Notes: generated by a model from the letters alone, not told the origin. Positions 10,793-41,302 are shown, counted from the first letter of the stretch. The stretch: DNA of 64,000 bases from a virus (IMGVR_UViG_3300042465_005116:32001-96000); one strand, 5' to 3'. Translations and numbers: made by a program.

Positions 10793-10807
10793 TGAATGAG
10801 TTAAGAA

Positions 10808-10927
10808 TTAGTGATTTTTATAAACGAATGGGTCTCTTTTACGGAGTTCTTCTAAACGTTTTTTATATTGTTTTTTTAATTTACGTTGTTTGAACCAATC
10901 TGTTATTTTTTTAATAAGCTTTTTCAT
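10808..10927 (-). CDS. Small basic hypothetical protein, 39 aa (below ORF-track cutoff)
   Basis: Manual translation MKKLIKKITDWFKQRKLKKQYKKRLEELRKRDPFVYKNH*; fills the gap and overlaps the upstream gene end. Confidence 0.6.
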   Translation of the reverse strand: MKKLIKKITDWFKQRKLKKQYKKRLEELRKRDPFVYKNH

Positions 10928-12858: not shown

Positions 12859-12866
12859 TTTTTAAT

Positions 12867-14584: not shown

Positions 14585-14587
14585 AAC

Positions 14588-19336: not shown

Positions 19337-19340
19337 ATTG

Positions 19341-22941: not shown

Positions 22942-22943
22942 AC

Positions 22944-23726
22944 TTAAATTAGAGTAGAAGATTTTTTATTTATACTATTCATTAATTCAACTTCGTAATT
23001 TTTAAAAGTTTCAATATACCACTGTCTTCTATGTCTTAGGTGGTTACAATGACCAGATTTATCTGATATTGTTGAGTATGTGCTTGAAACTCCATCATAT
23101 TCAAACCAAGTGTTTTCATATTTTGCATCATGCATTATTTCATCAAAATATATTTCGTCTTCTAATACTATTTTTGGAATAAAATAATCAACTGCTTTTA
23201 AGTAATCAATACTACCTGCCCAAAACCCATTATGTGGTATTGAATTTTTGTGATGATATGCACATCCTATATAAGTGTTACACCAACTGTAATCAATAAG
23301 GTCACCTGTATATTTATTTGCTGATGACATCATTAATTCATCTAATTCATTGTAGAAACAAACTACAAATTCTTTGTTTACACTATCATGTGAAACAAAT
23401 ACCTTTAACCATTCTTGATTTTCAATTTTTTGTGGTACAAAGACGTGGTTAAATTTTGGTTCTGCATCCGGTGTTTCCTTTGTCCACCAATCAAATTTAA
23501 TATATCCATCTAATGTTATATACAACCCTAAATGTAATCCTGGTTTACCAATAATACAACATGCATTATTTTCACCTTCATCTTTTTTAATTGCTTCAAA
23601 ATTTGTTTTAAATTTAGTAAACAAAGTAAAATCTCCTTGTACCCAAGCAGCTGAATTCTTATCTTTTAATCCATGTTGGTTTTCTATACAAATTTCCCAC
23701 CAATCTTTATAATTTATTTCTATCAT
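22944..23726 (-). CDS. Probable LamG/concanavalin A-like beta-sandwich protein
   Basis: Aromatic beta-rich pattern with TYIGCA...FWAGSIDYLK, matching the LamG-like inserts of the neighbouring GT7 genes. Confidence 0.5.
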   Translation of the reverse strand: MIEINYKDWWEICIENQHGLKDKNSAAWVQGDFTLFTKFKTNFEAIKKDEGENNACCIIGKPGLHLGLYITLDGYIKFDWWTKETPDAEPKFNHVFVPQKIENQEWLKVFVSHDSVNKEFVVCFYNELDELMMSSANKYTGDLIDYSWCNTYIGCAYHHKNSIPHNGFWAGSIDYLKAVDYFIPKIVLEDEIYFDEIMHDAKYENTWFEYDGVSSTYSTISDKSGHCNHLRHRRQWYIETFKNYEVELMNSINKKSSTLI

Positions 23727-25170: not shown

Positions 25171-26610
25171 TTAAAGTTTTACATTTATCAACTTTGCTTT
25201 CGGTGCTAAATTTTCAATATTAATTAACTCATATTTTAATTGAGCAATTCCATCTAATTTATAATCCCATTTACCTTGTTGCATCTGTAAAACGTATCTT
25301 TTTTCATTTCGTGCCGTAGTTTCTCCCTTTGCCCACTTATCTACTCCACCTACTTTAATTAAACCTTCATCTTGATGTGGTAAACATTTCAATCTACCAG
25401 CAATTCGATGTGGTATTATAGTATATGGTATTTTTATCTCCTCTATTTTGTTTTCACAATTATATGCTATACCATTATTATCATTACCACTTTTATCAGT
25501 TACAATTCCATCTTCAAAATCATAATGTAAAATTAAATCGGCATTAATAGGTATATTTGGTATTTGTTCTACTTCGCCTTTTGATAATGCTCTGTCCCAC
25601 ATTTTAACTTCTCCTATATCACCTTTGAACCACTTACTAACATCATCTGCTGCAACTGAAGTGGTTGTTCCTAAATAATAATCAACCATACCATAACGTT
25701 TTAACATTCCTGCAAATTGTTGTGGAGAATGAGTACCAGTTCCGTGTCTTGCATCAGATTCTTTTCCATTCATATAAAAATGAATATTATTATCATCAAC
25801 TACAAGTGTAACCCATGTCCATTGGTTTTCATATCGTTTCATCCATTGATATAAATGTTCTCTTTGGTTATTCCAAAGTTGTGCAGTGTATGCTCTACTA
25901 TTATTATAACTCAATCCGTAATCATAACCTGGTCTGCGTAGTATTGGATATTCACAAAATCTTCTTTCAGTATCACCTACTAACCAAATTGGAACTTTTT
26001 CCTCTTGTTGGTGTGCACGAACTAATATTGAAATTGTATGAGAACGTGATGTTAAATTTCTTAAACTTCTTGTTGTAGGAATATGAACATATGAACTTTT
26101 ACCATCAAACGATAAAAAATGTTTAGGGGTTGATGGGTAATTCATATATGAATTGTTTGCATATCCTTCTAATATACATCTCCAAAATAGGTCATCATCT
26201 TCCATACCCCAATCCCAATAATCGTTTGAATATCCGTTGGTGCGTTCCACTTGTTCCTTTGAAAAAATGACTGCTCCACCAAAATACTCTTCGTATTTCA
26301 ACTTGTAATCCATTTGAGAGATATTTGTAGCGATGTGTATTGGGTGTTTGTCTGGAAATGAGTAATCACATCCCTCTTCAGGTATCATATCAATATCATG
26401 CCAAACTATATAATCACACCCATCTTCAAATGCGTGTTTTGCTGCAACGTTTTTCATTGCACCCCTATTGAATAATTTATCATCAACTTGATGCCCAAAA
26501 TAAATACAATAATCAATACCTTGTTCTTCAAGATACTTTCCTACTGTTGGGATAAACTCTTTTAAATGAGATTCTCTATTTCTATAAGGTACACATACTC
26601 CTAATTTCAT
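25171..26610 (-). CDS. GT7 (beta-1,4-galactosyltransferase-like) glycosyltransferase with inserted LamG-like domain
   Basis: VPYRNR, FNRG..KN, HDIDMIP (DxD), YFGG, NGYSNDYWDWGMEDDDL, then LamG-like segment, then LPH...DGIAQLKY tail. Confidence 0.85.
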   Translation of the reverse strand: MKLGVCVPYRNRESHLKEFIPTVGKYLEEQGIDYCIYFGHQVDDKLFNRGAMKNVAAKHAFEDGCDYIVWHDIDMIPEEGCDYSFPDKHPIHIATNISQMDYKLKYEEYFGGAVIFSKEQVERTNGYSNDYWDWGMEDDDLFWRCILEGYANNSYMNYPSTPKHFLSFDGKSSYVHIPTTRSLRNLTSRSHTISILVRAHQQEEKVPIWLVGDTERRFCEYPILRRPGYDYGLSYNNSRAYTAQLWNNQREHLYQWMKRYENQWTWVTLVVDDNNIHFYMNGKESDARHGTGTHSPQQFAGMLKRYGMVDYYLGTTTSVAADDVSKWFKGDIGEVKMWDRALSKGEVEQIPNIPINADLILHYDFEDGIVTDKSGNDNNGIAYNCENKIEEIKIPYTIIPHRIAGRLKCLPHQDEGLIKVGGVDKWAKGETTARNEKRYVLQMQQGKWDYKLDGIAQLKYELINIENLAPKAKLINVKL

Positions 26611-28073
26611 TATATATCTACTTTTATATGTGATACTGATGGTGAAATTACTTTATTTTCTAATTCAGTATATCGCAATGTATTTAATCCATCAATATGA
26701 TAATCCACAATACCAGTTCGTACTTTATTATAATATTTTAATTGATTTTTTCTAGTTTCATCGTGTACCCAACGATTACCAATTGAAGAATTTGATTTAT
26801 GTTTTAAAGATTTAAATTTACCATTTCTTCTATATGGTTTTGGTAAAAATGTATTAAATGATTGTGATAATTTTTCAATACTAACATTATTTAATTTAGC
26901 CTGATATTCTCCAACCAAATCTACACACTTTATATTATTTGATAATTCAGGTAGTAATTGAAAATATAAAAACTCTGATGATTTAAAGTTACCAAAATTT
27001 CTAATTTTTGGTTTTACTTTATTTTTACATATTTCTATGATTTCGTTTGGTTCTAATGCACTATCATACATTTCAACATTAGCTATATTACCATAAAAGA
27101 AATCTTTATTAGTATTCTTACCATTTGCTGCACCTATATAAATATTCTTACTTGATAAGTCTAATATTTCAGCATCCATTTTAACACTATCAATAAGATT
27201 ACCATCTAAATAAAAATATAACATATTAGTATCTTTAAATACCATAGTTAAGTGAACCCAACGTTCTCCTAATATTTCAGTTGTTATTGAGTATGGGTTT
27301 TTATTTTTATCAAACGTTTGACAGAAAAATCTACGAAACGAATTATAAAAAATACCAATATTATATCCCGGTATTGATATTATTGGATATTCATCGTAAT
27401 CTTTGTTTCGATTTATTTGCACGTCTACAGGTTTTACCATTACTGATAATGTAAAATCATTTGATAGATACGATGGTGTTTTTGCTTGTAATTCTATATA
27501 AGAATTATTACCATCAAATTTAAATGTTTCAAATATTTCAACATCACAATTATCTGAATCTTCAACATCCAATTCTAAATCAGATTCTAAACATCTTATT
27601 AATAAATCATCATCTTCAAATCCCCATCCTAAGTATTCGTTTGAATATCCATTTATTTTTTCAAAATCTGCTTTATTAAAAAGAGTAACTCCTCCAAAAT
27701 AATCAAAAAATGAAATTTCATAATCATTTTCTTGTAAATGAGTTGCTAGGTGTAGTGGTTTATCAGTATATGAATAATCTACGTTAATTGGTAACATATC
27801 TACATCGTGAAATACAAAATAATCACAATTATGATTGCATGCAATTTTATAACCTACATTTAATAGTTTACCACGATTAAATGGTTTGTCATCATTTTGT
27901 TCGATAACAAAAATTTGGTAGGTATAATTAGTCAGATATTTTTCCATATGTTTTAAAAACCTATTGAGTTGGGTTTCTCTATTACGATATGGAACAATAA
28001 CCGCTAGTTTATGCTGTTGGTGTATCACCTTCTGTTTCATTTGTTTCAATTTCTGGTTCGGTTCTTTCTGCAT
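26610..28073 (-). CDS. GT7 glycosyltransferase with inserted LamG-like domain (start uncertain)
   Basis: VPYRNR, FNRGKLLN, FHDVDMLP, NGYSNEYLGWGFEDDDL, LamG-like insert, LKH..DGLNTLRY. Confidence 0.85.
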   Translation of the reverse strand: MQKEPNQKLKQMKQKVIHQQHKLAVIVPYRNRETQLNRFLKHMEKYLTNYTYQIFVIEQNDDKPFNRGKLLNVGYKIACNHNCDYFVFHDVDMLPINVDYSYTDKPLHLATHLQENDYEISFFDYFGGVTLFNKADFEKINGYSNEYLGWGFEDDDLLIRCLESDLELDVEDSDNCDVEIFETFKFDGNNSYIELQAKTPSYLSNDFTLSVMVKPVDVQINRNKDYDEYPIISIPGYNIGIFYNSFRRFFCQTFDKNKNPYSITTEILGERWVHLTMVFKDTNMLYFYLDGNLIDSVKMDAEILDLSSKNIYIGAANGKNTNKDFFYGNIANVEMYDSALEPNEIIEICKNKVKPKIRNFGNFKSSEFLYFQLLPELSNNIKCVDLVGEYQAKLNNVSIEKLSQSFNTFLPKPYRRNGKFKSLKHKSNSSIGNRWVHDETRKNQLKYYNKVRTGIVDYHIDGLNTLRYTELENKVISPSVSHIKVDI

Positions 28074-28305
28074 CTCTTGCCGGTCTATTTACTGAACCTA
28101 CTGTTTTAGCTTTTGCAATCATATAAAATTCATTTAAATACCATTCAATCCTTTCAGACCAAACATCTACTTCTAATGCATAAACCCAGTCGTTCATATC
28201 TTCCAATGTATCAGCAATACGTTCTAATGCTTTAGTACGTCTTTCTTCCAAATTTACGGATTCGCTTTTTGCCGTTTCGTTTCCTTTAATTAATTCCTTT
28301 GCCAT
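28009..28305 (-). CDS. Small acidic hypothetical protein
   Basis: 98-aa ORF filling the gap between GT7 paralogs; 3' end overlaps the next ORF. Confidence 0.6.
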   Translation of the reverse strand: MAKELIKGNETAKSESVNLEERRTKALERIADTLEDMNDWVYALEVDVWSERIEWYLNEFYMIAKAKTVGSVNRPARDAERTEPEIETNETEGDTPTA

Positions 28306-28330
28306 TTTTGTTTTGTTTTTTTTAAATTTA

Positions 28331-29818
28331 TTAAGTTACAATTCTTAGTAATGTATACCCATCTTTCATTTCTGAATTTAAGATTGTATATTTTATATTA
28401 GATAATCCTATTTTTTTAAAATCTATTTTATCAGTTAACGCCTCATTAAAAAATATATCTGCATTTTCCTCAACATCTGGGTCATATCTATAATATTTTT
28501 GTATAATATTATCATCTCCTACGTGTATTAGTGATTTATACGTTCCATCTAATCTAGTTGGTAAAGATATCTCATCTAATAGATTTATAGTTTCATTGAA
28601 TATTGAATATTTACCTTCTACCTTTACGTGATTTCCAGCTTTACCTTTGTCTAATTTAAGTTCTGCAATACCACTAACATTATATGCGGTATCAAATCTA
28701 AAAATATTAGTTGGTATCAATCCTTCAATACTAGCAAGTTTATCCAAATATGAAATACCATCATAATATAATTTTTTAAGTTGTTCATCCGTTAATGTAT
28801 CACTAAATGTAATTATATCTGCTAATTGGATTGCTGATTGTGAATCTGAAATTTTAATACATCTATCTGAATAATTAAAGGTTTCAAATTTACCTAATTT
28901 TTTTTCTTGTACTTTTTTATTGTTCAATACAAGTTTAATTTTATTATTAGGTTTATCATAAATTAAAACTGCGTTATTCCACTTATCTTTATTGTATTCA
29001 ATACAAACATCAAAATGGTGTTCGGTATTACTCCAAATTTGTCCATTTAAATATCGACTACCAACTTCATTTTCAGATAAAAATAATCCAGTATCTGGTC
29101 CATCAAATGCAAATAAGTTTATTTTATGCATTACCTCCGATATATCTTTAAACCATAATGATATTGTAAAAGATGAATCAGTAAATCCTTGCATTAAGGA
29201 ATTCTGTGGTCCGTATAATCGAGTTTCTTTTGGTAAATCAATTCCTTTGATTGTATGGGTTTTATTAATGTTTGATATCTCAACATTTTCAATTCTATAT
29301 GGTAACACATCCCACAAATCATAATATGAATATACTTGTTGTGCATCATAATATTGTTCTAAATATACTCCTGCTTTTTCCAATCGCATTAGTAAATCTA
29401 AATCTTCAAATCCATATCCCCAATACTCATTAGAGTATCCGTTAGCCATTTCAAAATCTTCCCTATTAATTAATACAACTCCGCCAAAATATTGTGGGTA
29501 AGGTAATTTATTATTGTGTGCTTCTACGTTTGTTGCAAGGTGAGTCGGAACTGCTGGATAATTATAATCACACGAATCATTTATCGGTAACATATCAATA
29601 TCATGAAAACAAAAATATGTGTATTCTTTTGGTATTTCGTTTATTACCGCGTTACATAACTTACCATAATTAAATGGTCTATCATCTGCTTGTTCTGCTA
29701 TAAAAATAGTATAATCAATTCCTTTATTTGCAAGGAATCTATTCATGTGTGGTATAAAGACATTTAAATGTGCTTGTCTATCACGATATGGTACTATGAT
29801 TGCTAATTTATCTATCAT
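28331..29818 (-). CDS. GT7 glycosyltransferase with inserted LamG-like domain
   Basis: VPYRDR, FNYGKLCN, FHDIDMLP, YFGG, NGYSNEYWGYGFEDLDL, LamG-like insert, LIH..GLSNIKY. Confidence 0.85.
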   Translation of the reverse strand: MIDKLAIIVPYRDRQAHLNVFIPHMNRFLANKGIDYTIFIAEQADDRPFNYGKLCNAVINEIPKEYTYFCFHDIDMLPINDSCDYNYPAVPTHLATNVEAHNNKLPYPQYFGGVVLINREDFEMANGYSNEYWGYGFEDLDLLMRLEKAGVYLEQYYDAQQVYSYYDLWDVLPYRIENVEISNINKTHTIKGIDLPKETRLYGPQNSLMQGFTDSSFTISLWFKDISEVMHKINLFAFDGPDTGLFLSENEVGSRYLNGQIWSNTEHHFDVCIEYNKDKWNNAVLIYDKPNNKIKLVLNNKKVQEKKLGKFETFNYSDRCIKISDSQSAIQLADIITFSDTLTDEQLKKLYYDGISYLDKLASIEGLIPTNIFRFDTAYNVSGIAELKLDKGKAGNHVKVEGKYSIFNETINLLDEISLPTRLDGTYKSLIHVGDDNIIQKYYRYDPDVEENADIFFNEALTDKIDFKKIGLSNIKYTILNSEMKDGYTLLRIVT

Positions 29819-30669
29819 ATTTTAATTATAATTCTAGTTAATCTATCCCATTTAATGTAATCAAAATGATTATTTGTATTCATCTTTTCAAACATAAATT
29901 TATCGTTATTTATATCAATTTTAAAATCATTCCATTGAATTGCGTTATACATTAATTCATATTCAGTTGAAAACGCGTATTCTTTTTTAATATCAGCAAC
30001 CGCCTTAATTCTATCTACACAAGTACTATCCCATTTGAAATGATGTACTTGTATTAATCCTTCACCATCTCCAATTGGGTAACGTTTTGGATGAGATTCT
30101 CCCCAACTATTTGTTCCATCCTCAAACTCAGCGTAATGTTGGCCGGATGATATTTTAATAAACCCTTTCATAATACAAACCTTATTTGGACAAGCCCCAC
30201 TCATTGGATATCTAAAAAATCCAGCAAGTGGGAATTGTGTCCAAATATTTGTATGTTCATTTATCTGAGGAAACTCTCCATTTTCTCCTATCCTGTCAAT
30301 AAACCCACCTGTAACAAATTCCCAATTATTTTCTTCACAATCAGAAATTAATTCTCTAATTGGTTTTGGATAAATGTGAAACTCATCGTCATCTGAAACT
30401 ACCCACCAATCATTGGGGTGTAATAATTTTGTTTCGTTATATAATTGTGTAACATATTCCCAATTAAATTTTTCTTTTATTTCTCGTCTAACAATTTTTG
30501 CTTTAGGAAATTCTTTTACAATCTCATAAACAATATCATATGTGCTAAACTCATCCCATTCATATACAACAACATATATTTCATCAACTAAATCATTATA
30601 GTGATTTAACATATGACGTAGAGTATTTGTTCTACTTCCTGTTACTGTAACTAATCTAATTTTTTGCAT
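29815..30669 (-). CDS. GT-A fold glycosyltransferase (GT2/GT92-like)
   Basis: WWVVSDDDEF DxD motif; late QVHHFKW motif. Confidence 0.62.
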   Translation of the reverse strand: MQKIRLVTVTGSRTNTLRHMLNHYNDLVDEIYVVVYEWDEFSTYDIVYEIVKEFPKAKIVRREIKEKFNWEYVTQLYNETKLLHPNDWWVVSDDDEFHIYPKPIRELISDCEENNWEFVTGGFIDRIGENGEFPQINEHTNIWTQFPLAGFFRYPMSGACPNKVCIMKGFIKISSGQHYAEFEDGTNSWGESHPKRYPIGDGEGLIQVHHFKWDSTCVDRIKAVADIKKEYAFSTEYELMYNAIQWNDFKIDINNDKFMFEKMNTNNHFDYIKWDRLTRIIIKI

Positions 30670-31442
30670 CTCTGAATAAATGTTAACCCCGTAGAAGTTG
30701 GTTTGTTTCTTAATATCCCGTTATTAAAAAAATTAAATATTTCCCAATTGCCGGTTTCTTTTAATTCTTTTATTAATTTAGATGGGCCAGATGAAAACTC
30801 ATGAAAGTCATTTTTGGGTTTTACATCATCCGTAACAATTAATTCCTTTTCAAATGATACATCGGTATCGTGAATTGATATTATACCATAAGGTGAAAGA
30901 AGTTGTGAATATAATTCAAAATCATTTTTTACATCTTCATAGGAATGACCTGCATCTATATGTAGATAATCAATTTTAATATCTTCTTTAACAAAATAAT
31001 TATAAAATGCGTTTTCAGTAGTATCTATGATAAATCTACAAGGAAAATTAGTTCTAAAAAAAGAATTTTCAGATTCCCAATCGGTATGACCACCGATTCC
31101 ATTTGAAGCATCTACTAAAATTGTAGTACCACAATCACCCCACTCCATCATTTTATTTCCACTAAATATTTGTTGGTCGTGTAAATCAATTCTAGCTTGT
31201 GACATTAATCGCGGAATAAATCCACCACCACTCCCCAAGCATACACATGTTTTTGCTCTGAGGTATTGGATTGTTGCATAAATTAATAATCCATCCCCAA
31301 TATGTAAATCAGTAGCTCCATGTGACCATCGATATGCAACGGGTTGGTATTCAAAATATTCATCACCCTTAGTGTCTATTTTTTTAGTTCTATTATTGGT
31401 AAAAAAATCTTTTAAAATATTATAGTTGAGAATACTGCCCAT
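30651..31442 (-). CDS. Class I SAM-dependent methyltransferase (Methyltransf_24-like)
   Basis: VCLGSGGG, IDYLHIDAGHSYEDVKND, GIISIHDT. Confidence 0.82.
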   Translation of the reverse strand: MGSILNYNILKDFFTNNRTKKIDTKGDEYFEYQPVAYRWSHGATDLHIGDGLLIYATIQYLRAKTCVCLGSGGGFIPRLMSQARIDLHDQQIFSGNKMMEWGDCGTTILVDASNGIGGHTDWESENSFFRTNFPCRFIIDTTENAFYNYFVKEDIKIDYLHIDAGHSYEDVKNDFELYSQLLSPYGIISIHDTDVSFEKELIVTDDVKPKNDFHEFSSGPSKLIKELKETGNWEIFNFFNNGILRNKPTSTGLTFIQRCKKLD

Positions 31443-31623: not shown

Positions 31624-32661
31624 TTATCCTAAAATTGCTGTACGGACTTTATCAATCCATACGTCTTTATTATCAAATTTTATCATATATTCTTTAAGAT
31701 TTTTGATGTTTGCAACCCTCTCTTCATGTGAATCTTTGAGGATTTGTTTAACACATTCATCAAATTCATTTTTGGTTGAAACCCTATATTTGTATTCAAC
31801 CTCCGGTGCCCAATCTTTATTTATTATTGGTAATTTACCATAATCTACTGCTTGAAATATTGAATATCCAAATGGTTCTTTAAAATACGCTGCGTGAAAT
31901 ATACCAAAATTTTTCAACATAAAAAAATGATGATGATTAACATCCCATTGAAAAACTTCCATTCCTTTTAATGAGTAGGTACTACTATCTTTAAGATTTT
32001 GTAAATCAAACTGATTTGTTAGAATATATCCTTTATGGTCGTTTAACCAATGTACACATTTTCTTGATTCAATACGAGAAGCAAATCCAATTTTACCATT
32101 ATCAACATGAGTAGTGAGCGGTAAGTTATTTTTAAACTCATAAAAATTTGGAACGTTATATGTGTAGTTTGGATGTTCATCAATCATAGTTGTGGTATTA
32201 TTACCTACCCAAATTCTACGATTAAATGTTGCTAAATACTCATCATAAAAATCTGAATCAACTTGAGTATTATATTGTAACCTTTTTAGTTCCGGAATAG
32301 CAGAAATTGCGGCATCCATTTCTCTAGCATATGCATGAACAAAGACAGTTTTAAATTTATCTTCAAAATGCCAAATGTGCGGTCTTAAATGATAATGTGG
32401 ATGTAATACATGAATTTCTTCACACTCATCTAACCACGTTCTAGTCTTTTCAGGGTCATCGTAGTGAAAATGATGAACCAATCCCTTCGGTAAGTATTTT
32501 GATTCGAATGAAGCGGGTCTCTTGGAGTCAATAAGTAATCTCCAATCCCTTTTGACAGGTAGTGTTGGCCAAACTAATTCTAAAAAATAATTAGTCCATA
32601 TATCGGCCCCACCCATAACAGTATTACCACATCCAGTTGTAACTAAAACCTTTATACTCAT
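31624..32661 (-). CDS. Probable GT-B (GT4-like) glycosyltransferase
   Basis: N-terminal GGADIW loop; C-terminal KEPFGYSIFQAVDYGKLPII resembling the GT4 ExFG..EA motif. Confidence 0.6.
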   Translation of the reverse strand: MSIKVLVTTGCGNTVMGGADIWTNYFLELVWPTLPVKRDWRLLIDSKRPASFESKYLPKGLVHHFHYDDPEKTRTWLDECEEIHVLHPHYHLRPHIWHFEDKFKTVFVHAYAREMDAAISAIPELKRLQYNTQVDSDFYDEYLATFNRRIWVGNNTTTMIDEHPNYTYNVPNFYEFKNNLPLTTHVDNGKIGFASRIESRKCVHWLNDHKGYILTNQFDLQNLKDSSTYSLKGMEVFQWDVNHHHFFMLKNFGIFHAAYFKEPFGYSIFQAVDYGKLPIINKDWAPEVEYKYRVSTKNEFDECVKQILKDSHEERVANIKNLKEYMIKFDNKDVWIDKVRTAILG

Positions 32662-32690: not shown

Positions 32691-33242
32691 TTAAACAAAC
32701 GATTTTTCTCTAACCCACACAATTGCAATCCACTTTGTACCACTAATAACTGGCAATCCTGCATGTAAACTTTCAAAATCTAAACTACCATCTATTTTTA
32801 GATTACTCCACATTAACATACGACCAGTTTTTGGTGTTACTTTTATTTTTTTAGTAGGAAATTCGGTTTCACCCCCTTCAAATTCATCGTTTAAATAAAA
32901 TAAACAAGATACCACCCTCTGACCACCTGATTTCATAGTAGTATCGTAATAATCAGTATTTGGATGGAAAAAATCATGATGTGTTTTATATTCACCACCA
33001 ACGTTATATTTTACAATATGTATTTGTTCTTGATTTTCAATTGGAAGTCCTGATTTACTTGAAATTATTTTTTTTATTTTTGTTGTTAATTCTGTTTTTG
33101 AATGAATCCACGTATTTTCAGCAACCCTATAATTTTCAATTGGAGTTCCTAATGTAGAAGCACTTATCATATTTGCAGAACCCATTTCAATTAGTTCTTT
33201 ACATTCTGCTTCAGATATTTCATAATCAATTATTGCTATCAT
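32691..33242 (-). CDS. Prolyl 4-hydroxylase-like 2OG-Fe(II) oxygenase
   Basis: EQIHIVKYNVG, HHD (HxD), QRVVSCLFYLND, GGETEFP, LHAGLPV..GTKW (distal His and 2OG-binding Lys). Confidence 0.92.
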   Translation of the reverse strand: MIAIIDYEISEAECKELIEMGSANMISASTLGTPIENYRVAENTWIHSKTELTTKIKKIISSKSGLPIENQEQIHIVKYNVGGEYKTHHDFFHPNTDYYDTTMKSGGQRVVSCLFYLNDEFEGGETEFPTKKIKVTPKTGRMLMWSNLKIDGSLDFESLHAGLPVISGTKWIAIVWVREKSFV

Positions 33243-33245
33243 AAC

Positions 33246-34103
33246 TTATTTTTTACAAGTTGTACATTCTTTATAAACTTCATTTACCCATTCTAAAGTA
33301 GTTCTTTCAGTTCCACCATAATCTTTTAAACCAGTAACAAAATCCATATTTGGATTGAATTTACTCCAATTACATAATTCTCTATAAGAACTATTATAAT
33401 TTGGAATATATTTATGCCAAATTATATTTTTTCTAATTGCAAATACATCATAACCACTTTTAAATAGTAAAAGGGAATATATTTCTTGTTCTTTAGTTGG
33501 GTTGTAATATTCGTTTACTTTTAATATATTTACAATTTCACCACTACCAAATAAGTTACCTCCTGATATATTCATCACTTTTTCATAACCATCAATTGGG
33601 TGTCTCATACAATGTGGGGGAATAAATTCAGGTGTCCACGTCGGTGCATTAGATGTATATATTGTGGCAACGTTTCGTTTACTATATACATCATATGTTT
33701 CATTAAATTCAAAAATCTGTGGAAATACACTAATAACTCCCTTTGATGGTATTTCACTTAATTGATTAATATATTCATCATCCCACCCTATCAAAAATCT
33801 AGAATGAGAATCTACACATAAAAAATAATCTTCATTATTATATAAATTTTCCATTATTAAATTCCTAGCCCATCCACATCCTTGTGCATCAGAAGCTAGT
33901 ATTTGCATAAATTTTACATTTAAATAAAATAGATGGTTATTAATTAAATCTGTTATTCTTTTTTGTTCTACCTCAGTATCTTGCAAACACACTCCAATAA
34001 ATACATTATTTGGATTATTCGCTTTATTAAAACAATCTATTATAGTGTTAACAACATCAAAATCTTTATATGAAGCTATACTTACAAATATCGTTTTATT
34101 CAT
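33246..34103 (-). CDS. GT60-like (Skp1-hydroxyproline GlcNAc transferase Gnt1 family) glycosyltransferase
   Basis: TIFVSIASYKD, FIGVCLQ, AQGCGWAR, EDYFLCVDSHSRFLIGWD (DSH motif), later EQ..S..LF..GYD..IWH. Confidence 0.8.
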   Translation of the reverse strand: MNKTIFVSIASYKDFDVVNTIIDCFNKANNPNNVFIGVCLQDTEVEQKRITDLINNHLFYLNVKFMQILASDAQGCGWARNLIMENLYNNEDYFLCVDSHSRFLIGWDDEYINQLSEIPSKGVISVFPQIFEFNETYDVYSKRNVATIYTSNAPTWTPEFIPPHCMRHPIDGYEKVMNISGGNLFGSGEIVNILKVNEYYNPTKEQEIYSLLLFKSGYDVFAIRKNIIWHKYIPNYNSSYRELCNWSKFNPNMDFVTGLKDYGGTERTTLEWVNEVYKECTTCKK

Positions 34104-34112
34104 AATTATTTA

Positions 34113-35732
34113 TTATTCTATTTGTTTTACTTCTGCTCGGTTATGTACTAATATACCACTGCCAAAGTATACGTCATCATCTTCAATATTAACACTAACA
34201 GTTTGACAAGTTTCATTAATGAATTCAATGTCGCGTATTCTAACCCATATATCATTGGTATTAAATAAATAATCACCCACTAATAAATTATAAACCTTAC
34301 AAAACTTATATTCATTACCTCTTTTTATAAACACAGGATGTTCATATGTTATTCGTATTGATTTATTTATAATATAATAATTGGAATAAGACCCATGCAT
34401 TAAAGTTACAACCCTTGCTGTTGATGGTTCAAACCAAAATTTAGTATCAGAAAAATTAACCCAATTTTTTTCAATATCCTTATCTAATCCTTCTATTGAT
34501 AAACTACTAAGAATATCTCCCAATACTAAATCTTCAATTAATTTATTACTACCATCAGCCATTTTAATTTCAGTACCATAAAGAAAACACGGGTCTTCTT
34601 CCGGTGGAGGAGGTGGTGGTGGAGTTGGTGTTGGTGGAGGCGGAGGTGGTGCCGGACAACTACTTACTGTATTAATAAACCCATTACCTTCTACATAGTA
34701 AACTGAAGTTCCGTTTGAATAATATCCATCGGCTGCATTCGAACTACCATCACTAGCTGATTTTAATACACATTGTGCAATAAGTGATGAACAAGTACTC
34801 CATACTTCCGTAGTTACACCCATAGCACATGCCAACGAATCATCTCCCGCATTATATCCAAAATTAAATGAATAATATGTTGGAGGTGCCGGCGTAGGCG
34901 GAGGTGGAGTTGGTGGTGCAACATAACATGCAACAGCACTTATCCCATATCTAACACCCGCTCCAGTTGTAGCGTTATAAATATAAACACCATAACTTCC
35001 ACCATAATCACCTACACCTGTAAAAGTGTACGATGTTGCACTACCAATTGATAACGTAGCCAATGCTGCAGGACTAGCAGTATCCACACTATATCCAACG
35101 TAACAATCACTTCCACCATTTGCTATATTTTCTATAAATATTCGACCACTTGCACCCGTTGTTCCACTACAATCTTGTGTAACAGTAGCAGTTACCGCAG
35201 GTGGTGGAGTTGGTGGTGGTGGAGTTGGTGGTGGTGGAGTTGGACACGTACATCCATTAATGCCAGTTGCACGAAAAAGATGAGTATCAGTTGGAGTGTA
35301 TGATGTTCCTACTGCTATATAACAAATTTCATTTACATCATCGTATATATTTGTTCCGTAATTATAACTTCCAAAAATATGTCCCTGTGCTACCCCACCC
35401 GTACCACATTGTGATAAATATGTATATACCTGAGGAGCCGGTGTTGGAGGTGGTGGAGTTGGAGGAGCCGGAGTTGGTGGAGCCGGTGTTGGTGGAGCCG
35501 GAGTTGGAGGTGCCGGTGTTGGAGGTGCTGGAGTTGGAGGTGCAGGTGTTGGAGGAGCTGGAGTTGGAGGAGTTCCTGTTCCTCTTCCAAGAAACTCATC
35601 CATACCATGTGGTTTTGTAGGAATCCCATATGCTATAGCAGCCGTATCCATATCAACTTGAGTACCTGATGCAATATTTCTATCGGTATTAAATAAATTA
35701 AATGATATTTCTCCTGTAGACGGTAATGCCAT
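34113..35732 (-). CDS. Pro/Thr-rich, Cys-rich putative virion (tail-fibre-associated) protein with C-terminal Hint domain
   Basis: N-terminus MALPSTGEISF; four Pro-rich blocks separating Cys-rich segments; Hint CFLYGT...EHP...ILVHN; translationally coupled to tail fibre stop. Confidence 0.8.
   Translation of the reverse strand: MALPSTGEISFNLFNTDRNIASGTQVDMDTAAIAYGIPTKPHGMDEFLGRGTGTPPTPAPPTPAPPTPAPPTPAPPTPAPPTPAPPTPAPPTPPPPTPAPQVYTYLSQCGTGGVAQGHIFGSYNYGTNIYDDVNEICYIAVGTSYTPTDTHLFRATGINGCTCPTPPPPTPPPPTPPPAVTATVTQDCSGTTGASGRIFIENIANGGSDCYVGYSVDTASPAALATLSIGSATSYTFTGVGDYGGSYGVYIYNATTGAGVRYGISAVACYVAPPTPPPPTPAPPTYYSFNFGYNAGDDSLACAMGVTTEVWSTCSSLIAQCVLKSASDGSSNAADGYYSNGTSVYYVEGNGFINTVSSCPAPPPPPPTPTPPPPPPPEEDPCFLYGTEIKMADGSNKLIEDLVLGDILSSLSIEGLDKDIEKNWVNFSDTKFWFEPSTARVVTLMHGSYSNYYIINKSIRITYEHPVFIKRGNEYKFCKVYNLLVGDYLFNTNDIWVRIRDIEFINETCQTVSVNIEDDDVYFGSGILVHNRAEVKQIE
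34140..34589 (-). other. Hint (intein-like autoprocessing) domain, 150 aa, no endonuclease
   Basis: Starts CFLYGTEIKMADG..IEDLVLGD, block B-like ITYEHP, ends NIEDDDVYFGSGILVHN; +1 residue is Arg. Confidence 0.85.
35433..35570 (-). repeat. 15-bp coding tandem repeat, (PPTPA/PPTPP) x9
   Basis: 46 codons; units vary at synonymous positions. Further Pro-rich blocks near 35200-35245, 34885-34920 and 34600-34655. Confidence 0.95.
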
Positions 35733-38700
35733 TACTTATTCTCTTTTAACTCGTTAATTTCTTTTTTCAATTCCTTAATACACTCAACTAATAAGGGTAC
35801 AATTTTTTCGTATTTGATAGCAAGGTATCCATCTACTCTTTTTACCACAACCTCGGGTAAAATTGTTTCTACTTGTTGAGCAATTAAACCTACATCGTGT
35901 TTTCTTATAAAGTAATTATCTTCGCCCTTACCACCACTTTCTTTTTGAATATATTCATCTGTCCAATCAAATTCTACCCCATCTAATTTTTCTATTTTAT
36001 CAAGAGCTTTTCCTATTGGTATAATATTTTCTTTTAATCTTTTATCTGAAGTAGCGAATGCAGTTATATTTCCGGTAGCAGTAATACCACCACCAACTGC
36101 AACGAAATTAGTATTTGCCTCATTTCTTTCAACTTTAAGATATCTATCAGTACTTGCTACAACTTGGAAACCACCCGCAACTAATTCAGTTTTCGATACT
36201 TGTTGTGATACCGATATAGTACTTATCTTTGGAGTGTTATAAGAGACACTAACATCAAAAGTTGCAACTGTTCCTGAATCACGATACGCAACACATACTC
36301 CATTTTTAATATAAGGTACAAAATAATATGTTGTACTTGGTGATAATGAAATAGCCCCGGTTAAAGTACCAAACGCATCACCGCTGGCCCAACCAAATTG
36401 CTCTTCTATGATAGTGTTACCATATCCAAATACCTCTGAAAAATTTATTGCTTTCGATATATCTAAAACTTCATTAGCTATACCTGTACCACCCGCTCTA
36501 ACGGAAATCCCTATGGTATAGTAGTGTTGTACATAACTTATATAAGGAGTATTTCCCCCAAATGGTTGATTACCCGGTTCTAAATATACACTATAATTTG
36601 AAAGTACCCCATGCCATAAATTTGTACTTATGGAATAAATTCCAGTAGTCCCAGCACTTGTAGTAAAACTAGGTGATGAACCAGGAGTCCATTCTAAATA
36701 TGTTGGGTCCATATTAGCAGATATTTGTGTAACATATTGGGAAGTGTTACCAGCATATTGTTGCTGAGTATTATAATTTGTTACTGAAGTTGGACTTATT
36801 GTTACACTACCGGCACTTAAACTACTCAATGTAGAGGCGTTACTTATATCTACCCTTAATGCAGTACCCTCATAAATTTCAATAGCAGGTCTTGCTGCGT
36901 TTAATCTTAATTTTTCAGTTGAATCTCGTATACTTGTAGGAGTTACAGTCCAACCCCCAATGTTACCGGTGGTAGCCGAAACTCTACCAGTAATATCCGC
37001 ACCGGTTGCAAACAATATACCGGCATTAGTTACCCTAAACGGGGCATTACCAAATGTAGCATTTCCTAACCACATTCCATTACTATCTGCTTTAAAAATA
37101 GTATTTGAACTACCAATTGAAATTGCTCCGGTACTATCTAATATTGCTGCTCCACCTGTTAAAGTGGTTGCACCCAATGTCCACCCACCAATAGTACCAG
37201 AAGTTGCTTTTAAAACTCCCGCGGGTGTTACACTAAATTCTGCACTTCCAAATGTTTCATTACCTAAATAAATTCCACTAGTATCCGCAGTAAATACACT
37301 TTCACCACTACCAATTCGAATAGAACCATTAAACGTTCCTGTTGCTGCGGATAATGCACCACTAAACGTTCCTCCACCATTAACAGTTAAAGATGTTCCA
37401 TCCCATAATAGGGAATTACTAGCAGATTTTAAAGACAATCTATATACGGGTGAACTACTAACATTAACCACCCCCATAAAAATACCATTTACATTATACC
37501 CTTGTGAACCGGCTGATGAACTTTGTCCGATAGATATGTACGGATAGGCACTGCCACCTGCTAAAGTAATATTTGCTGCTGCCATTGCACCATTCGAATT
37601 CGTACCAATGTTTAAAGTGTTTTGAACAAACGAATCTTCAAATATACCTATTTTAGCTGCAACAAAGAAATCTTGTGCACCTAACGATATCCAACCCGTT
37701 TGTGCTGCTTGATGTGGTGCACCATTTATTACGTTTCCTGTTGCTGAAAGATGTTGTCTAGTAGTTGCGTAGTATGTATTATACGGAGCGTTTCCATTTG
37801 TACTCCATAAGACAGTATCTCTTCTACCAGTCCCCGTTGTTAACCCATCTGAAAATTGATAGGTTCTACCACTTGTCCAAACTCCGGTATGAACCACACC
37901 AGGACCTGTTTGACCCGTTGCACCATCATCTCCATCAGTTCCATCAGTTCCATCAGTTCCATCAGTTCCATCAGTTCCGTTAATTGTTACATTTACTTTA
38001 TGTTCTTTAGTTATTGTACCGGTAGTTCCTTCCGAATTTACATATGTTATAGTAATAGCTACAGTCGTACCTGCATCGGTAGTTGGTGTGGTTGGTGTTA
38101 TAGTTGTAGTTCCCGTTCCACCTGTTAATGAAATTTGATATGTATTTATTGCACCACCAGTTGAATATGTATAATTTGTTCCACCTTCGTTTACACTAAT
38201 TGTAAATGTAGCAGGTGTAGCATATACCCCAGCGTTTGTTTTTGTAATCGATTGACCTTCATTTGATAACGTTGCAATTACTACCGGTGCAGCTTTTTTA
38301 ACTTTTGATAAACTTAATGTATCAGTTAGAGTTCTACTTGTCCCTTCAGAATCCGTAACTACTGCTGATATTGCTATTGTTGTAGAATTTGTTCCCGCTG
38401 CTAAAGTTTTTCCATTTAACGTTACCAACCCACTTGCAGCAGTAGTTGATATTGATGTAATATCTGAAGATGTTGCAGTTAACGATGTTATTGTTTTTGT
38501 TGTAGTAGAACCATTATAAGTTTCCCTTACAACTATTGTTGAATTTGCAAATGAATCAATTTGTGCACCGGTTGATTTAGCAGTTACACTTTGGTCTTTT
38601 GGTGTTGCAGAAATTGCAAGAACCGGAGCAGCTTTTTTATTTTTTGTATAAGTTGCAGTTTTTATAACACTTGTGGTATCTCCGGCACCATCTTTATAAT

Positions 38701-41302
38701 TAATTGTAATATCTAAAGAACCAGAATCTGCTGCAAGTGCGGTTATACCATATACGTTTGTAGATGGATTTGTAATATTTGGAGTACAACCTATTCCGCT
38801 TAAATTAGTTATTGCAAATGTATTATTAGCTCTAAGATTATCATTATCATCATCAAATGTAATAGTCTCATTTCCCACTTTTACGTTTACCGAACCACTT
38901 GTAAAAACAAAATCACCATTTGCTACAACTCCAGTTGAAAGTGCAGGCAAGGATGTATTATCATTTGTTAATGTAACTGATAATCCATCTAATATTTTTA
39001 CAGGAGTTATGGTTACCGCATCTGAAAATTTATTTCCAAATTGGTCAGACCCTGTGAATGAATATGTAGTAGAACCACTTAAAAATGGATATGCAGAACC
39101 AGCTAATGTGAATAACGTTACACCTGAAGTAGCATCAGTTGCTCCAATAGTTAAAGGTGGTTTTAAACTACCAGAATTTACTTCTAATGTACCAGTAGTT
39201 GATGCTAAATTTTTTCTTTTAGCCTCTATTGTAATTACTTGGCCTGATGGATTTAAGGATAAATCAGTTGCCTTATAAATAAATTGGTTAGCGTTTGAAG
39301 TTGTAAATAGACCGGGTGCATTTTCTCCATCTTCAAATCTATAAATGGTTTCGAACTCATTTAACCCATCACATGATGCAGTATAAGTTATAGAACCAAT
39401 TAATACTGATGGTACACTACCACTAAAATTAGCAATAGTTAAACTTGCACCACCATCTCCTGCGTTTGTTAAAAGACCAGGATATGTTCCCGCATAACTA
39501 GCAGGAACTATATAATTACCATCTGTATCAAACGCAGCAGATGCATAAGTAACCGAACCTGTTAAATTAGTTCTACTAATTGAGAATCCAACTTGTTGAA
39601 AAGCAGGATTACCAAACGAACCACTCGTAAAACGAAATGCAGTTCTATCTGATTCAAATGTTAAGATTTTTGAGGTAGTTGTAAAACTGTTACCACCATT
39701 AAATGTTTTTGAAGTTTTTACATCAACGGGAATATAATTGTTATTTATATCGTAAAATTCAAATTTGAAATCATATGTCTCACTCGCAAGTTTACGAGGA
39801 ATATCTTGTATTAAAGTAAATTCATCAGGTGAAAACGAAGTTTCTTGTGCGTTTTGTAAACTCACATTTGCCAAATACCAATCATCACCCGCAAACTCAA
39901 ATACTAATTTAGCATCTCCAGTCTTAGTAGCCTTTACATTTTGAGTTACGTTTTGTTTTGTAGTATATATCGCCGAATTAGTAACATTTACGATAGTTTG
40001 TTGTGGATAATCCGAACCACTAAAATATGCTTTTAAAGTTTTAGTCGAATCATTTGAACCACTTAGGAGTGTTTTGAATGAAAGGGTATACTCAACTCCC
40101 TCTGTCAGAGATAGAGATTGAGATGTAATAAAAAGGGCAGTATTATCATAATTTGAACCACTATAATCTACCTTAACCGATGCGTTTAATTTATCTACAT
40201 TAATTGTAATTGGATGTGCAGTTGAACCACTTACCCAATAATTTTTTATATTGGTATCCGTAAACTGACCATAGGATAATTCCGTATTAGCAGTTGTTGT
40301 TATATCTTTTAGTATTTCTGATGATTCTAATTTAGTATCTTGTATGAATTGGTAATCACCAACTTCGTTTCTAGATTTTCTATAAACCTTTACTCTCGCT
40401 ACATCACCAACAAATGTTTTTAAATCTGATAATTGAATTTTAGCAAAAGAACCCGTCAACGCCGAGTTGATAATCGTCTGACCTTCAATATGGTCAAATG
40501 TAGTTGTGTAGGCAGTAGCAGGAAAATTTGAAACGGATGATGATACCGCATATGGAATATCTACAAATATTTCTTTGTTATTTAAGACCTCTCTTATAGT
40601 TGCCGAATACCCTAATGATGGTATTGTTATGGTATTTTCATCAACGGATGATGTCCAATTTGAACCATCGGTAATTTTTAATTTATATAAAGTTCCGGCT
40701 GTCCAAGTTCGAATATCAGTACCATAAACTGGTTGTTGTGGGATACCTTCAACCAATCCCGTTTGAGTAACTGATGGGGTTGTTATATTAAAAATGGGTT
40801 TATTTATCTCATCAATTGTAATTTTTGGTCTTTTATAAAACCTAACAATAGTTTCATTCGAAAGATTTTTATTTACATTAAACGTTCTCTCCCACTTAAT
40901 ATTATAGATACCACTCCACTCAGCAGGAATATCTCTAACTACTCCGGTCTCATCAATATAGGTTTTTAATTCACCTAATACAGTAATTTTTCCTAAACCA
41001 ATAGGGGTATCCTCATAGACATGAACTGATACAATTTTTGAAATTCCTTCGTAGTATTCTGGTATACCATTACCCGGCTCGTAATAAATCGGTGTGCCGG
41101 TAACATCTAATATCTCAATTTTAATTTCAGTTGTTTCCTTTAAATGTTCAGAACCCTCTATAAGAAACCCATTCTTACCACCGGTGAAGGTATCTTTAAA
41201 TTCGGTAATTCTAAAATATTCAGACGTTCTAACTTGGTCATTTATAAATGTACCAAAGTTTGATAAGTTTTGATACGAAGCGAACGATTTAATTATTGCC
41301 AT
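35732..41302 (-). CDS. Long tail fibre protein with C-terminal intramolecular chaperone (peptidase S74)
   Basis: C-terminal ATSDKRLKENI..DGVEFDW..GLIAQQVE..PEVV..KYEKIVPLLVECIKEL; Gly/Ser/Thr-rich fibre repeats (IGGWT twice); two KKAAPV Ig-like units; short collagen-like stretch. Confidence 0.87.
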   Translation of the reverse strand: MAIIKSFASYQNLSNFGTFINDQVRTSEYFRITEFKDTFTGGKNGFLIEGSEHLKETTEIKIEILDVTGTPIYYEPGNGIPEYYEGISKIVSVHVYEDTPIGLGKITVLGELKTYIDETGVVRDIPAEWSGIYNIKWERTFNVNKNLSNETIVRFYKRPKITIDEINKPIFNITTPSVTQTGLVEGIPQQPVYGTDIRTWTAGTLYKLKITDGSNWTSSVDENTITIPSLGYSATIREVLNNKEIFVDIPYAVSSSVSNFPATAYTTTFDHIEGQTIINSALTGSFAKIQLSDLKTFVGDVARVKVYRKSRNEVGDYQFIQDTKLESSEILKDITTTANTELSYGQFTDTNIKNYWVSGSTAHPITINVDKLNASVKVDYSGSNYDNTALFITSQSLSLTEGVEYTLSFKTLLSGSNDSTKTLKAYFSGSDYPQQTIVNVTNSAIYTTKQNVTQNVKATKTGDAKLVFEFAGDDWYLANVSLQNAQETSFSPDEFTLIQDIPRKLASETYDFKFEFYDINNNYIPVDVKTSKTFNGGNSFTTTSKILTFESDRTAFRFTSGSFGNPAFQQVGFSISRTNLTGSVTYASAAFDTDGNYIVPASYAGTYPGLLTNAGDGGASLTIANFSGSVPSVLIGSITYTASCDGLNEFETIYRFEDGENAPGLFTTSNANQFIYKATDLSLNPSGQVITIEAKRKNLASTTGTLEVNSGSLKPPLTIGATDATSGVTLFTLAGSAYPFLSGSTTYSFTGSDQFGNKFSDAVTITPVKILDGLSVTLTNDNTSLPALSTGVVANGDFVFTSGSVNVKVGNETITFDDDNDNLRANNTFAITNLSGIGCTPNITNPSTNVYGITALAADSGSLDITINYKDGAGDTTSVIKTATYTKNKKAAPVLAISATPKDQSVTAKSTGAQIDSFANSTIVVRETYNGSTTTKTITSLTATSSDITSISTTAASGLVTLNGKTLAAGTNSTTIAISAVVTDSEGTSRTLTDTLSLSKVKKAAPVVIATLSNEGQSITKTNAGVYATPATFTISVNEGGTNYTYSTGGAINTYQISLTGGTGTTTITPTTPTTDAGTTVAITITYVNSEGTTGTITKEHKVNVTINGTDGTDGTDGTDGTDGDDGATGQTGPGVVHTGVWTSGRTYQFSDGLTTGTGRRDTVLWSTNGNAPYNTYYATTRQHLSATGNVINGAPHQAAQTGWISLGAQDFFVAAKIGIFEDSFVQNTLNIGTNSNGAMAAANITLAGGSAYPYISIGQSSSAGSQGYNVNGIFMGVVNVSSSPVYRLSLKSASNSLLWDGTSLTVNGGGTFSGALSAATGTFNGSIRIGSGESVFTADTSGIYLGNETFGSAEFSVTPAGVLKATSGTIGGWTLGATTLTGGAAILDSTGAISIGSSNTIFKADSNGMWLGNATFGNAPFRVTNAGILFATGADITGRVSATTGNIGGWTVTPTSIRDSTEKLRLNAARPAIEIYEGTALRVDISNASTLSSLSAGSVTISPTSVTNYNTQQQYAGNTSQYVTQISANMDPTYLEWTPGSSPSFTTSAGTTGIYSISTNLWHGVLSNYSVYLEPGNQPFGGNTPYISYVQHYYTIGISVRAGGTGIANEVLDISKAINFSEVFGYGNTIIEEQFGWASGDAFGTLTGAISLSPSTTYYFVPYIKNGVCVAYRDSGTVATFDVSVSYNTPKISTISVSQQVSKTELVAGGFQVVASTDRYLKVERNEANTNFVAVGGGITATGNITAFATSDKRLKENIIPIGKALDKIEKLDGVEFDWTDEYIQKESGGKGEDNYFIRKHDVGLIAQQVETILPEVVVKRVDGYLAIKYEKIVPLLVECIKELKKEINELKENK
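37898..37978 (-). repeat. Collagen-like Gly-X-Y stretch, (GTD)5-GDD-GAT-GQT-GPG
   Basis: 9-bp unit ccatcagtt repeated five times on the plus strand. Confidence 0.9.

Follow-up and report, generated by a model that had tools for sequence, protein, structure and literature searches.

A candidate prolyl hydroxylase–GT60 O-glycosylation cassette beside a proline/threonine-repeat protein gene in a bacteriophage genome fragment

In a 64,000-nt stretch of viral DNA (IMGVR_UViG_3300042465_005116:32001-96000; hereafter the window), three consecutive genes spanning positions 32691-35732 encode a protein with proline/threonine (Pro/Thr) repeat tracts, a predicted GT60-family glycosyltransferase and a predicted prolyl 4-hydroxylase (P4H). 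We consider it fairly probable that this trio constitutes a phage cytoplasmic O-glycosylation cassette acting on the phage's own fibre-associated repeat protein. An earlier note, made from the sequence of the window alone, had proposed that the phage hydroxylates and glycosylates this protein, and at the level of comparative genomics the proposal is supported by (i) the families to which the two enzymes belong; (ii) the linkage of their genes in other viral contigs; (iii) homologous modules shared by the repeat proteins of different lineages; and (iv) the fusion of an HPAT-family domain to GT60 in some viral relatives.

The cassette and its three products

The window is coded on the minus strand throughout (GC about 30%, 46 predicted proteins). 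The coordinates of the open reading frames (ORFs) confirm that the three genes follow directly behind a tail fibre gene: the ATG of the repeat-protein gene overlaps the fibre stop codon by 1 base, 9 nt separate the repeat-protein and GT60 genes, and 3 nt separate the GT60 and P4H genes. The features of the cassette and the adjoining fibre gene are as follows.

32691-33242, minus strand: minimal prolyl 4-hydroxylase, 183 aa, catalytic domain only (PF13640; Protein Data Bank, PDB, matches)
33246-34103, minus strand: GT60-family polypeptide N-acetylglucosamine (GlcNAc)-transferase-like enzyme, 285 aa (PF11397; fold model)
34113-35732, minus strand: repeat protein P0001, 539 aa, candidate substrate (N-terminal module, four Pro/Thr tracts, three Cys-containing modules, Hint domain)
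35574-35732, minus strand: N-terminal module of P0001, residues 1-53, beginning MALPSTGEISF (conserved in relatives)
35433-35573, minus strand: (PPTPA)9 tract, residues 54-100 (15-nt period, 9.4 copies)
35196-35243, minus strand: Pro/Thr tract 2, residues 164-179 (PTPPPPTPPPPTPPPA; from the sequence)
34878-34919, minus strand: Pro/Thr tract 3, residues 272-285 (from the sequence)
34653-34880, minus strand: small globular module C, residues 285-360 (homology and fold model)
34602-34655, minus strand: Pro/Thr tract 4, residues 360-377, running into the Hint domain (from the sequence)
34140-34589, minus strand: C-terminal Hint (intein-like) domain, residues 382-531 (Cys382, TxxH, His-Asn; phrog_38766, 1.9e-10)
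35732-41302, minus strand: tail fibre gene, 1856 aa (Peptidase_S74 C-terminus, PF13884, E 4.8e-15; phrog_5668, tail fibre, 2.9e-33)

The 183-aa protein matches PF13640 (E 8.3e-18), and all nine of its PDB matches at E <=0.01 are prolyl 4-hydroxylases, the best being those of Bacillus anthracis (3itq, 3.7e-28) and Chlamydomonas (1.9e-24), with further matches to human C-P4H alpha-2 (3.5e-23) and to the enzyme of the chlorovirus PBCV-1 (1.2e-15). Residues H88-x-D90, H160 and K170 align with the B. anthracis P4H; the lysine lies ten residues past the second histidine (+10), as is the rule for P4Hs. The family check suggested in the earlier note, together with this iron triad and lysine of a 2-oxoglutarate (2OG)-Fe(II) oxygenase and the PDB matches, thus upholds the hydroxylase assignment. 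The enzyme is of the collagen/algal/bacterial type; no PhyA or PHD-type chain occurs among its PDB matches at E <=0.01.

The 285-aa protein contains the IFVSIASY (residues 5-12) and DSH (residues 98-100) motifs on which its assignment as a GT60-like transferase had been based, and the profile hidden Markov model (HMM) check for PF11397 is clearly positive (E 3.5e-36; 125.8 bits vs a cut-off of 21). D98-S99-H100 is invariant in 17 aligned relatives and has the form DxH, the DxD-like metal/nucleotide motif of the GT60 family. An AlphaFold (AF2) model (pLDDT 91.4) has a GT-A fold, and its fold neighbours in the PDB include SpsA and the Ser/Thr-directed polypeptide (pp) GalNAc-transferases (ppGalNAc-Ts); no solved GT60 structure was found in the PDB by phmmer or profile search. 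The best structural match in Swiss-Prot is the Dictyostelium Skp1-hydroxyproline (Hyp) GlcNAc-transferase Gnt1 (Q8T1C6; E 4.5e-18, 21% identity), the next match (1.8e-9) being nine orders of magnitude behind. Like the P4H, the GT60 enzyme has no membrane-like segment, and both are on that basis soluble.

The candidate substrate has the tract architecture originally described, PPTPA occurring nine times within residues 54-100 and three more Pro/Thr tracts following. Together the four tracts comprise 95 residues (65 P, 18 T and 12 A), and P0001 is the only protein in the window with such tracts. The domains between them had been called Cys-rich; cysteines are indeed present, but with 11 of them in residues 101-359 the domains are better described as Cys-containing than as strikingly Cys-rich. 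The N-terminal module is kept at the start of the repeat proteins of three related viral loci (L002, L003 and L051 of the survey below) and is also present in protein P0061.

Module C, of about 60-75 aa (consensus YYFD..SF..AT..Y.D..L....A..GYYSDG), has homologues, often in several copies, in the tract proteins encoded next to P4H and GT60 in crAss-like contigs. Repeated copies were seen in tract proteins of L005, L009-L013, L019, L022, L026 and L039. Judged by sequence homology, therefore, the tract proteins of different lineages share globular modules and not merely a like composition. The fold model of module C is confident (pLDDT 91) and has no PDB match; its ESM Atlas matches (TM 0.76-0.88) are all Uroviricota proteins, some of which carry Peptidase_S74 or collagen repeats. 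The fold thus appears to be phage-specific, and module C could represent a new type of fibre or binding domain.

Linkage of P4H, GT60 and repeat-protein genes in other genomes

A pattern scan of viral contigs yielded at least 491 GT60 loci. We analyzed 86 loci, namely 80 kept from the scan, five further loci and the window, which form 50 clusters at 90% identity; linkage was scored over 1.25 Mb with a P4H HMM built for this analysis. A P4H gene lies beside GT60 in 46 of the 86 loci and 30 of the 50 clusters, the loci being almost all from viral contigs. Where linked, it is invariably on the GT60 strand and at most 4.2 kb away, and no P4H was found elsewhere in the same 1.25 Mb. The pairing occurs in four different gene orders, crAss-like contigs included, and in a GT60 tree the P4H-linked genes make up three deep clades, a giant-virus-like clade being without P4H. 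The apparent absence of P4H from L033 and L041 reflects contig ends. Same-strand Pro-rich tracts were present in 19 of 30 clusters with P4H vs 3 of 20 without (Fisher p 0.0012, over clusters that are related to one another). Co-occurrence of the three genes across phages, the test set in advance for the proposal, is thus what these loci display, and none of the computational tests able to refute the proposal went against it.

In the close relatives L001, L002, L003 and L008, whose GT60 is 64-75% identical to that of the window, the order is tail fibre, one or more Pro/Thr-tract proteins, GT60 and P4H. L001-L003 have in addition a GT2-family gene that separates GT60 from P4H, and in L008 the GT60 protein carries a fused GT32-like domain. 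The synteny of L003 with the window extends from the fibre to the GT7 genes described below. No orthologue of the relatives' GT2 gene was found in the window (E 0.15 vs the gene at 29815-30669).

Contigs with crAss-type muzzle genes encode a GT60 about 50% identical to the window's, and here large (TP)n proteins are followed by a two-domain P4H, a radical S-adenosylmethionine (rSAM)/SPASM enzyme, GT60 and a (TP)n protein. Summed over the P4H-linked loci, the tracts contain 1618 P, 978 T and 349 S, so that Thr and Ser are the commonest residues after Pro; some tracts of relatives are nearly pure poly-Pro. Two loci (L011 and L014) have lost the N-terminal P4H domain and keep the second oxygenase-like domain, rSAM, GT60 and the tract proteins. 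By eye, the second domain of the long crAss-like P4Hs (about 390-420 aa) has an HxD..H..R pattern resembling another 2OG oxygenase (e.g., residues 195-392 of the protein encoded at 5922-7100 in L006; in L011 it forms a separate ORF at about 8500-9090); it has no sequence relative in the PDB and no counterpart in the window. The rSAM/SPASM gene overlaps its P4H and GT60 neighbours (L005, 4228-5136; L006, 7100-8008; L007, 7099-8001; about 20 further loci) and its product may modify these Cys-containing repeat proteins in a third way. A study of the Baltic Sea virome (PMC9301287) likewise lists a viral rSAM/SPASM 'AMG' (auxiliary metabolic gene) that is abundant and unexplained.

In another viral class (L031, L034, L042, L047 and L057), P4H is directly followed by a single polypeptide of 870-1200 aa in which O-FucT and GT60 are fused. 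The fusions of L031 and L034 have an N-terminal HPAT-family domain (PF23452; 43.4 and 31.9 bits vs a cut-off of 23.9). The contigs of this class are compact and phage-like, and L034 continues with a second GT60, a carbamoyltransferase, a GT17 gene and a family-B DNA polymerase. Long GT60 ORFs, recognized by the GT60 HMM only, also follow P4H in L039, L040, L044, L045, L048, L050, L058-L061, L072 and L075. In the window proteins scanned, there was no match to HPAT, O-FucT, GT31 or GT77.

Bacterial and archaeal genomes contain 207 GT60 loci, and a P4H of the same type adjoins GT60 in two of the best 80. The description of the system as eukaryote-like was therefore overstated, GT60 relatives being common both in viral contigs and in bacterial genomes. 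One of the two loci comes from a Bacteroidetes single-cell genome. In L096, a 41-kb contig of the single-cell genome of an uncultured Bacteroidetes bacterium (AG-470-E04), a P4H is accompanied by an ORF of 1535 aa that contains a GT60 domain, a length compatible with the fused class; this contig could belong to an infecting phage and would then hint at the host phylum. Among isolate phages, GT60 was seen only in the Xanthomonas jumbo phages XacN1 and Xoo-sp13, without P4H.

The contig that encodes the protein from the window reaches up to 229 kb, and several independent lake-water metagenomes contain contigs in which the cassette stretch recurs without a single difference; some relatives are marine. 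Numerous contigs from other organisms of the same lakes are drawn to the DNA coding for Pro tracts (34603-34656 and 35200-35243). The nearest isolate is Microcystis phage Mel-JY01 (SbcC 37%, P4H 41%), whose P4H stands alone among hypothetical genes. A blastn search of the three cassette genes against 50,697 phage records gave no match, scans for sigma-70 promoters and terminators gave chance levels only, and an NCBIfam search yielded nothing useful.

The Hint domain, the tail fibre and the downstream genes

All Hint blocks are present in P0001: Cys382 at position 1, T462-Y-E-H465 and the terminal H530-N531. Since the residue after H530-N531 is Arg and the protein ends only 8 residues further on, the domain cannot splice; it is instead predicted to cleave or ligate, and self-cleavage leaving a mature protein that ends in the last Pro tract is most likely its role. 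The Pfam Hint matches of the window protein are weak, and its relatives match Hint, Hint_2 and PT-HINT. An exhaustive search recovered 1841 representative proteins (50% identity) with this domain, which in the best 150 of the 1841 lies nearly always at the extreme C-terminus; among the matches listed, the proteins range from about 100 to 3400 aa, and a Pro- or Gly-rich linker precedes the domain. These relatives include Erwinia jumbo phage proteins annotated as virion or tail. In close relatives of the window phage the same Hint domain is found on a separate, small gene consisting of a module and a Pro tract (P0057 and P0058); L001-L003 are without it.

The C-terminal Peptidase_S74 domain of the tail fibre is an intramolecular chaperone, and tail-fibre PHROGs are matched as well. 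The fibre also contains a collagen-like stretch, (GTD)5-GDD-GAT-GQT-GPG (37923-37978, minus strand; 9-nt repeat, 6.2 copies), and its collagen match is weak (PF01391, E 0.01).

Downstream of the P4H gene, the following genes lie on the same strand.

31624-32661, minus strand: GT-B-like protein, 345 aa (follows P4H also in L003, 36% identity)
30651-31442, minus strand: methyltransferase (syntenic in L003)
29815-30669, minus strand: GT-A-like gene (syntenic in L003)
28331-29818, 26610-28073 and 25171-26610, minus strand: three GT7 genes with LamG domains (syntenic in L003)
12313-25138, minus strand: sugar-nucleotide/tailoring island (Pfam scans)

The GT-B-like protein has no Pfam match; an ESM feature score of 0.97 to GT4/GT1/AGT clusters is a lead only. 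The three GT7 genes are paralogues from the animal beta-1,4-Gal/GalNAc-transferase family, each with a Laminin_G_3/ConA-like lectin domain. Glycan tailoring and elongation is the probable function of the genes at 25171-31442. The sugar-nucleotide island encodes two rSAM enzymes, three short-chain dehydrogenase/reductase (SDR) epimerase/dehydratases, an RmlC-like epimerase, the halves of a thiamine pyrophosphate (TPP) enzyme and a HAD phosphatase, and it may serve the same glycan. It is closed by a gene for a giant protein (5811-10763, minus strand; 1650 aa) with an N-terminal cytidylyltransferase-like domain and otherwise unannotated; a 219-aa ORF (5098-5757) lies between this gene and the terminase gene. 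The giant protein is kept in the minimal L001 cassette (10513-13953, 1146 aa).

Hydrophobic segments (Kyte-Doolittle mean >=1.8 over 19 residues) occur in none of the 46 window proteins, and the glyco-island of about 27 kb codes for soluble proteins only. With no membrane segment in any protein, the window encodes no lipid-linked polysaccharide machinery, and a lipid-linked surface polysaccharide pathway was on this ground rejected as the principal interpretation. The claim that the downstream GT7, GT-A and GT-B enzymes elongate the chain accords with the L003 synteny and with the lack of membrane proteins. L001 lacks most of the island, and its P4H is followed by the cytidylyltransferase-like giant protein, two unannotated ORFs and the terminase; this arrangement would fit a glycan whose core is conserved and whose outer part varies.

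The proposed pathway, its alternatives and its significance

On the reading that we favour, the repeat protein would be made together with the tail fibre late in infection, and the P4H, with O2, 2-oxoglutarate and Fe(II), would hydroxylate PPTPA/PPTPP-tract prolines to 4-hydroxyproline. The GT60 enzyme would then add an N-acetylhexosamine (HexNAc), most likely GlcNAc from host UDP-GlcNAc, to the new Hyp hydroxyl, as Gnt1 does, and/or to tract Thr, in the manner of the pp-alpha-GlcNAc transferases that modify protist mucins. Hydroxylation followed by transfer of HexNAc to Hyp is preferred because of the resemblance to Gnt1, the persistent coupling of P4H and GT60 and the HPAT fusions. In the window phage, the soluble GT-B-like, GT-A-like and three GT7-LamG enzymes, with the sugar-nucleotide genes, would extend or tailor the glycan, and the Hint domain would remove itself by cleavage at Cys382. 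The mature product would carry small, phage-specific, binding-type modules on stiff, protease-resistant, glycosylated polyproline-II linkers and would resemble an extensin or mucin, attached to the tail fibre or close to it as an appendage.

The Skp1 pathway of Dictyostelium, Toxoplasma and Pythium likewise pairs a soluble cytoplasmic P4H with a GT60-family GlcNAc-transferase, and it is this pathway that supplies the best structural match of the phage GT60. Its activities are physically coupled, as they are in the adjacent or near-adjacent phage genes, and further soluble transferases follow (in L001-L003 a GT2-family gene comes right after GT60). According to PMC8724618, P4H and Gnt1 form one protein in oomycetes (Pythium) and enzyme pairs of the pathway are often fused; by analogy, the adjacency of P4H and GT60 genes in phages would be the prokaryotic equivalent of the oomycete fusion. 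The parallel with PhyA and Gnt1 drawn in the earlier note accordingly holds for the transferase, but not for the P4H, which is of the collagen/algal rather than the PhyA/PHD type. The systems also differ in substrate (a repetitive Pro/Thr tract in the phage candidate, a single Pro in Skp1), in the later transferases (GT7-LamG and GT-B-like in the phage; PgtA, AgtA, Glt1 and Gat1 in the Skp1 pathway) and in the role of the phage cassette, which would likely be structural and not oxygen sensing. No Skp1 family member was matched when the ORFs from 3.5 to 41 kb were scanned against Pfam.

Hydroxyproline-rich glycoproteins (HRGPs) of plants and green algae (extensins and arabinogalactan proteins (AGPs), modified by P4H with the GT95 enzyme HPAT or the GT31 enzyme Hyp-GALT) share with the phage system repetitive Pro-rich tracts, which are of the TP/SP/AP type in the crAss-like relatives, the P4H subfamily, to judge from the Chlamydomonas match, and, in the other viral contigs described above, an HPAT-family domain fused to GT60 beside P4H. 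However, the plant enzymes are membrane-anchored in the endoplasmic reticulum and Golgi, whereas the phage enzymes are all soluble; the phage motif is PPTPA and not SPPPP; and the window has GT60 with no HPAT, GT31 or GT77 match. Mucin-type initiation by GT60 enzymes, as in Trypanosoma cruzi and by Dictyostelium GntB, resembles the phage system in family and in its Thr/Pro-rich acceptor repeats (PMC8724618). These enzymes are, in contrast, Golgi type II membrane proteins without P4H, the phage GT60 being a soluble 285-aa catalytic domain tied to P4H. T. cruzi extends the GlcNAc with beta-1,4-Gal, which the GT7 genes of the window would parallel.

Two viral precedents bear on the proposal. The P4H of PBCV-1 is, like the phage enzyme, small and virus-encoded, and it hydroxylates Pro-rich repeat peptides in vitro; unlike the phage enzyme, it belongs to a eukaryotic virus and has no linked GT60. 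Mycobacteriophages glycosylate their own structural proteins in the host cytoplasm with their own transferases. Those systems differ from the cassette in having no hydroxylase, in their glycosyltransferase families, in their acceptors (the C-terminal tails of capsid and tail-tube proteins) and in their actinobacterial hosts; mycobacteriophage virion glycosylation is mentioned in PMC11256854.

Several points weigh against the proposed pathway. The loci L011 and L014, without a P4H domain, indicate that hydroxylation is not indispensable and that Thr may be the acceptor. We infer the virion location only from gene position and from relatives of the Hint and other domains that bear virion or tail annotations. 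Linkers of the Pro/Thr kind occur commonly and may stay unmodified. The clusters compared for tract association are related, so that the p value is not a clean probability, and the class with fused glycosyltransferases is, within the sequence examined, mostly without neighbouring tract proteins. For PBCV-1, the one viral P4H that has been studied, action on the virus's own Pro-rich repeats had been cited as known; this stands for peptides in vitro, but Hyp was undetected in virions (PMC7019647), a warning against assuming modification in vivo.

The enzymes might instead act in parallel, GT60 placing GlcNAc on tract Thr and the P4H only stiffening or stabilising polyproline-II linkers whose Hyp stays free of sugar. 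GT60 includes Ser/Thr-directed pp-alpha-GlcNAc transferases (PMC8724618), the Ser/Thr-directed ppGalNAc-Ts are among the structural neighbours of the phage enzyme, Thr and Ser rank next to Pro in the tract totals given above, and L011 and L014 keep GT60 and repeat proteins without the P4H domain. We nonetheless think this arrangement rather unlikely. Among the structural matches the Hyp-directed Gnt1 is far ahead of the rest, the nearly pure poly-Pro tracts of some relatives speak against such an arrangement, and three features point to Hyp that is glycosylated: the very close linkage of P4H and GT60 across many loci, their fusion in Pythium and the HPAT-family fusion next to P4H. Less probable again is a role directed at the host, in which the enzymes would remodel host surface glycans or host proteins, for example in superinfection exclusion, as has been proposed for glycosyltransferase and 2OG-oxygenase clusters in jumbo cyanophages, and would stand near the tract protein merely through the usual clustering of accessory genes near fibres. 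Clusters of glycosyltransferases and 2OG oxygenases in jumbo phages have been read as modifying capsular polysaccharide (Iyer et al. 2021; PMC7824862), a large sugar-nucleotide and glycosyltransferase island does follow the cassette, the GT60 of XacN1 sits with a carbamoyltransferase and without P4H or repeat protein, and bacterial GT60 loci are mostly without P4H. Yet the window lacks genes for membrane proteins and for a flippase, a polymerase or an initiating phosphoglycosyltransferase, and the characterised members of both enzyme families act on polypeptides. Moreover, the trio is linked through four gene orders, and also in minimal cassettes without the sugar island (L001), and the repeat proteins are homologous, which makes them more than mere neighbours.

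A substrate elsewhere in the virion, such as the collagen-like (GTD)n stretch of the tail fibre, with the Pro/Thr tracts as plain linkers, seems to us very improbable. The closest solved relative of the phage P4H, from B. anthracis, comes from the family best known for hydroxylating collagen and acts on collagen-like peptides, and the fibre has its weak collagen match; however, what the lineages have conserved is the Pro/Thr tract and not the collagen repeat, and the collagen-like stretch is without any X-Pro-Gly run, its only Pro being that of GPG. With one Pro only, this stretch was rejected as a P4H substrate.

Modification of the phage's own repeat protein is thus the interpretation that we retain, and what the sequences support is an established chemistry, in which a GT60-type transferase acts after a P4H, placed in a new setting and with a new and unusually clear candidate substrate. 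We searched the literature on GT60 in phages, on phage P4H-glycosyltransferase systems and on phage O-glycosylation and found no description of the cassette, in agreement with the earlier statement that no characterised bacteriophage example was known. To our knowledge, hydroxyproline-linked O-glycans have hitherto been known from eukaryotes only. We hold more tentatively the wider proposition that bacteriophages make such glycans via a widespread aquatic P4H and GT60 cassette, giving extensin- or mucin-like fibre appendages, and regard it as a possibility nearly as strong as its contrary; from its predicted domains, that cassette sometimes includes an HPAT-family domain and an rSAM/SPASM enzyme.

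In the Baltic Sea virome, viral P4HA is among the most abundant auxiliary genes, occurring in 62% of water stations, and its use has been called 'cryptic' (PMC9301287); the cassette offers a concrete, testable function for such genes, and the wider proposition, if true, would also account for their abundance. If the proposal is correct, the system would be a minimal, soluble one of two enzymes (183 aa and 285 aa), simple to test in Escherichia coli, and the enzymes could serve as tools for Hyp-glycopeptides made in bacteria. Stiff, glycosylated, Pro-rich fibre stalks would bear on adsorption and host range, on how readily particles stick to gels of polysaccharide and on resistance to proteases, and Hyp-O-glycosylation, regarded as a eukaryotic modification of plant and algal cell walls and of protist Skp1, would extend to the viruses of bacteria.

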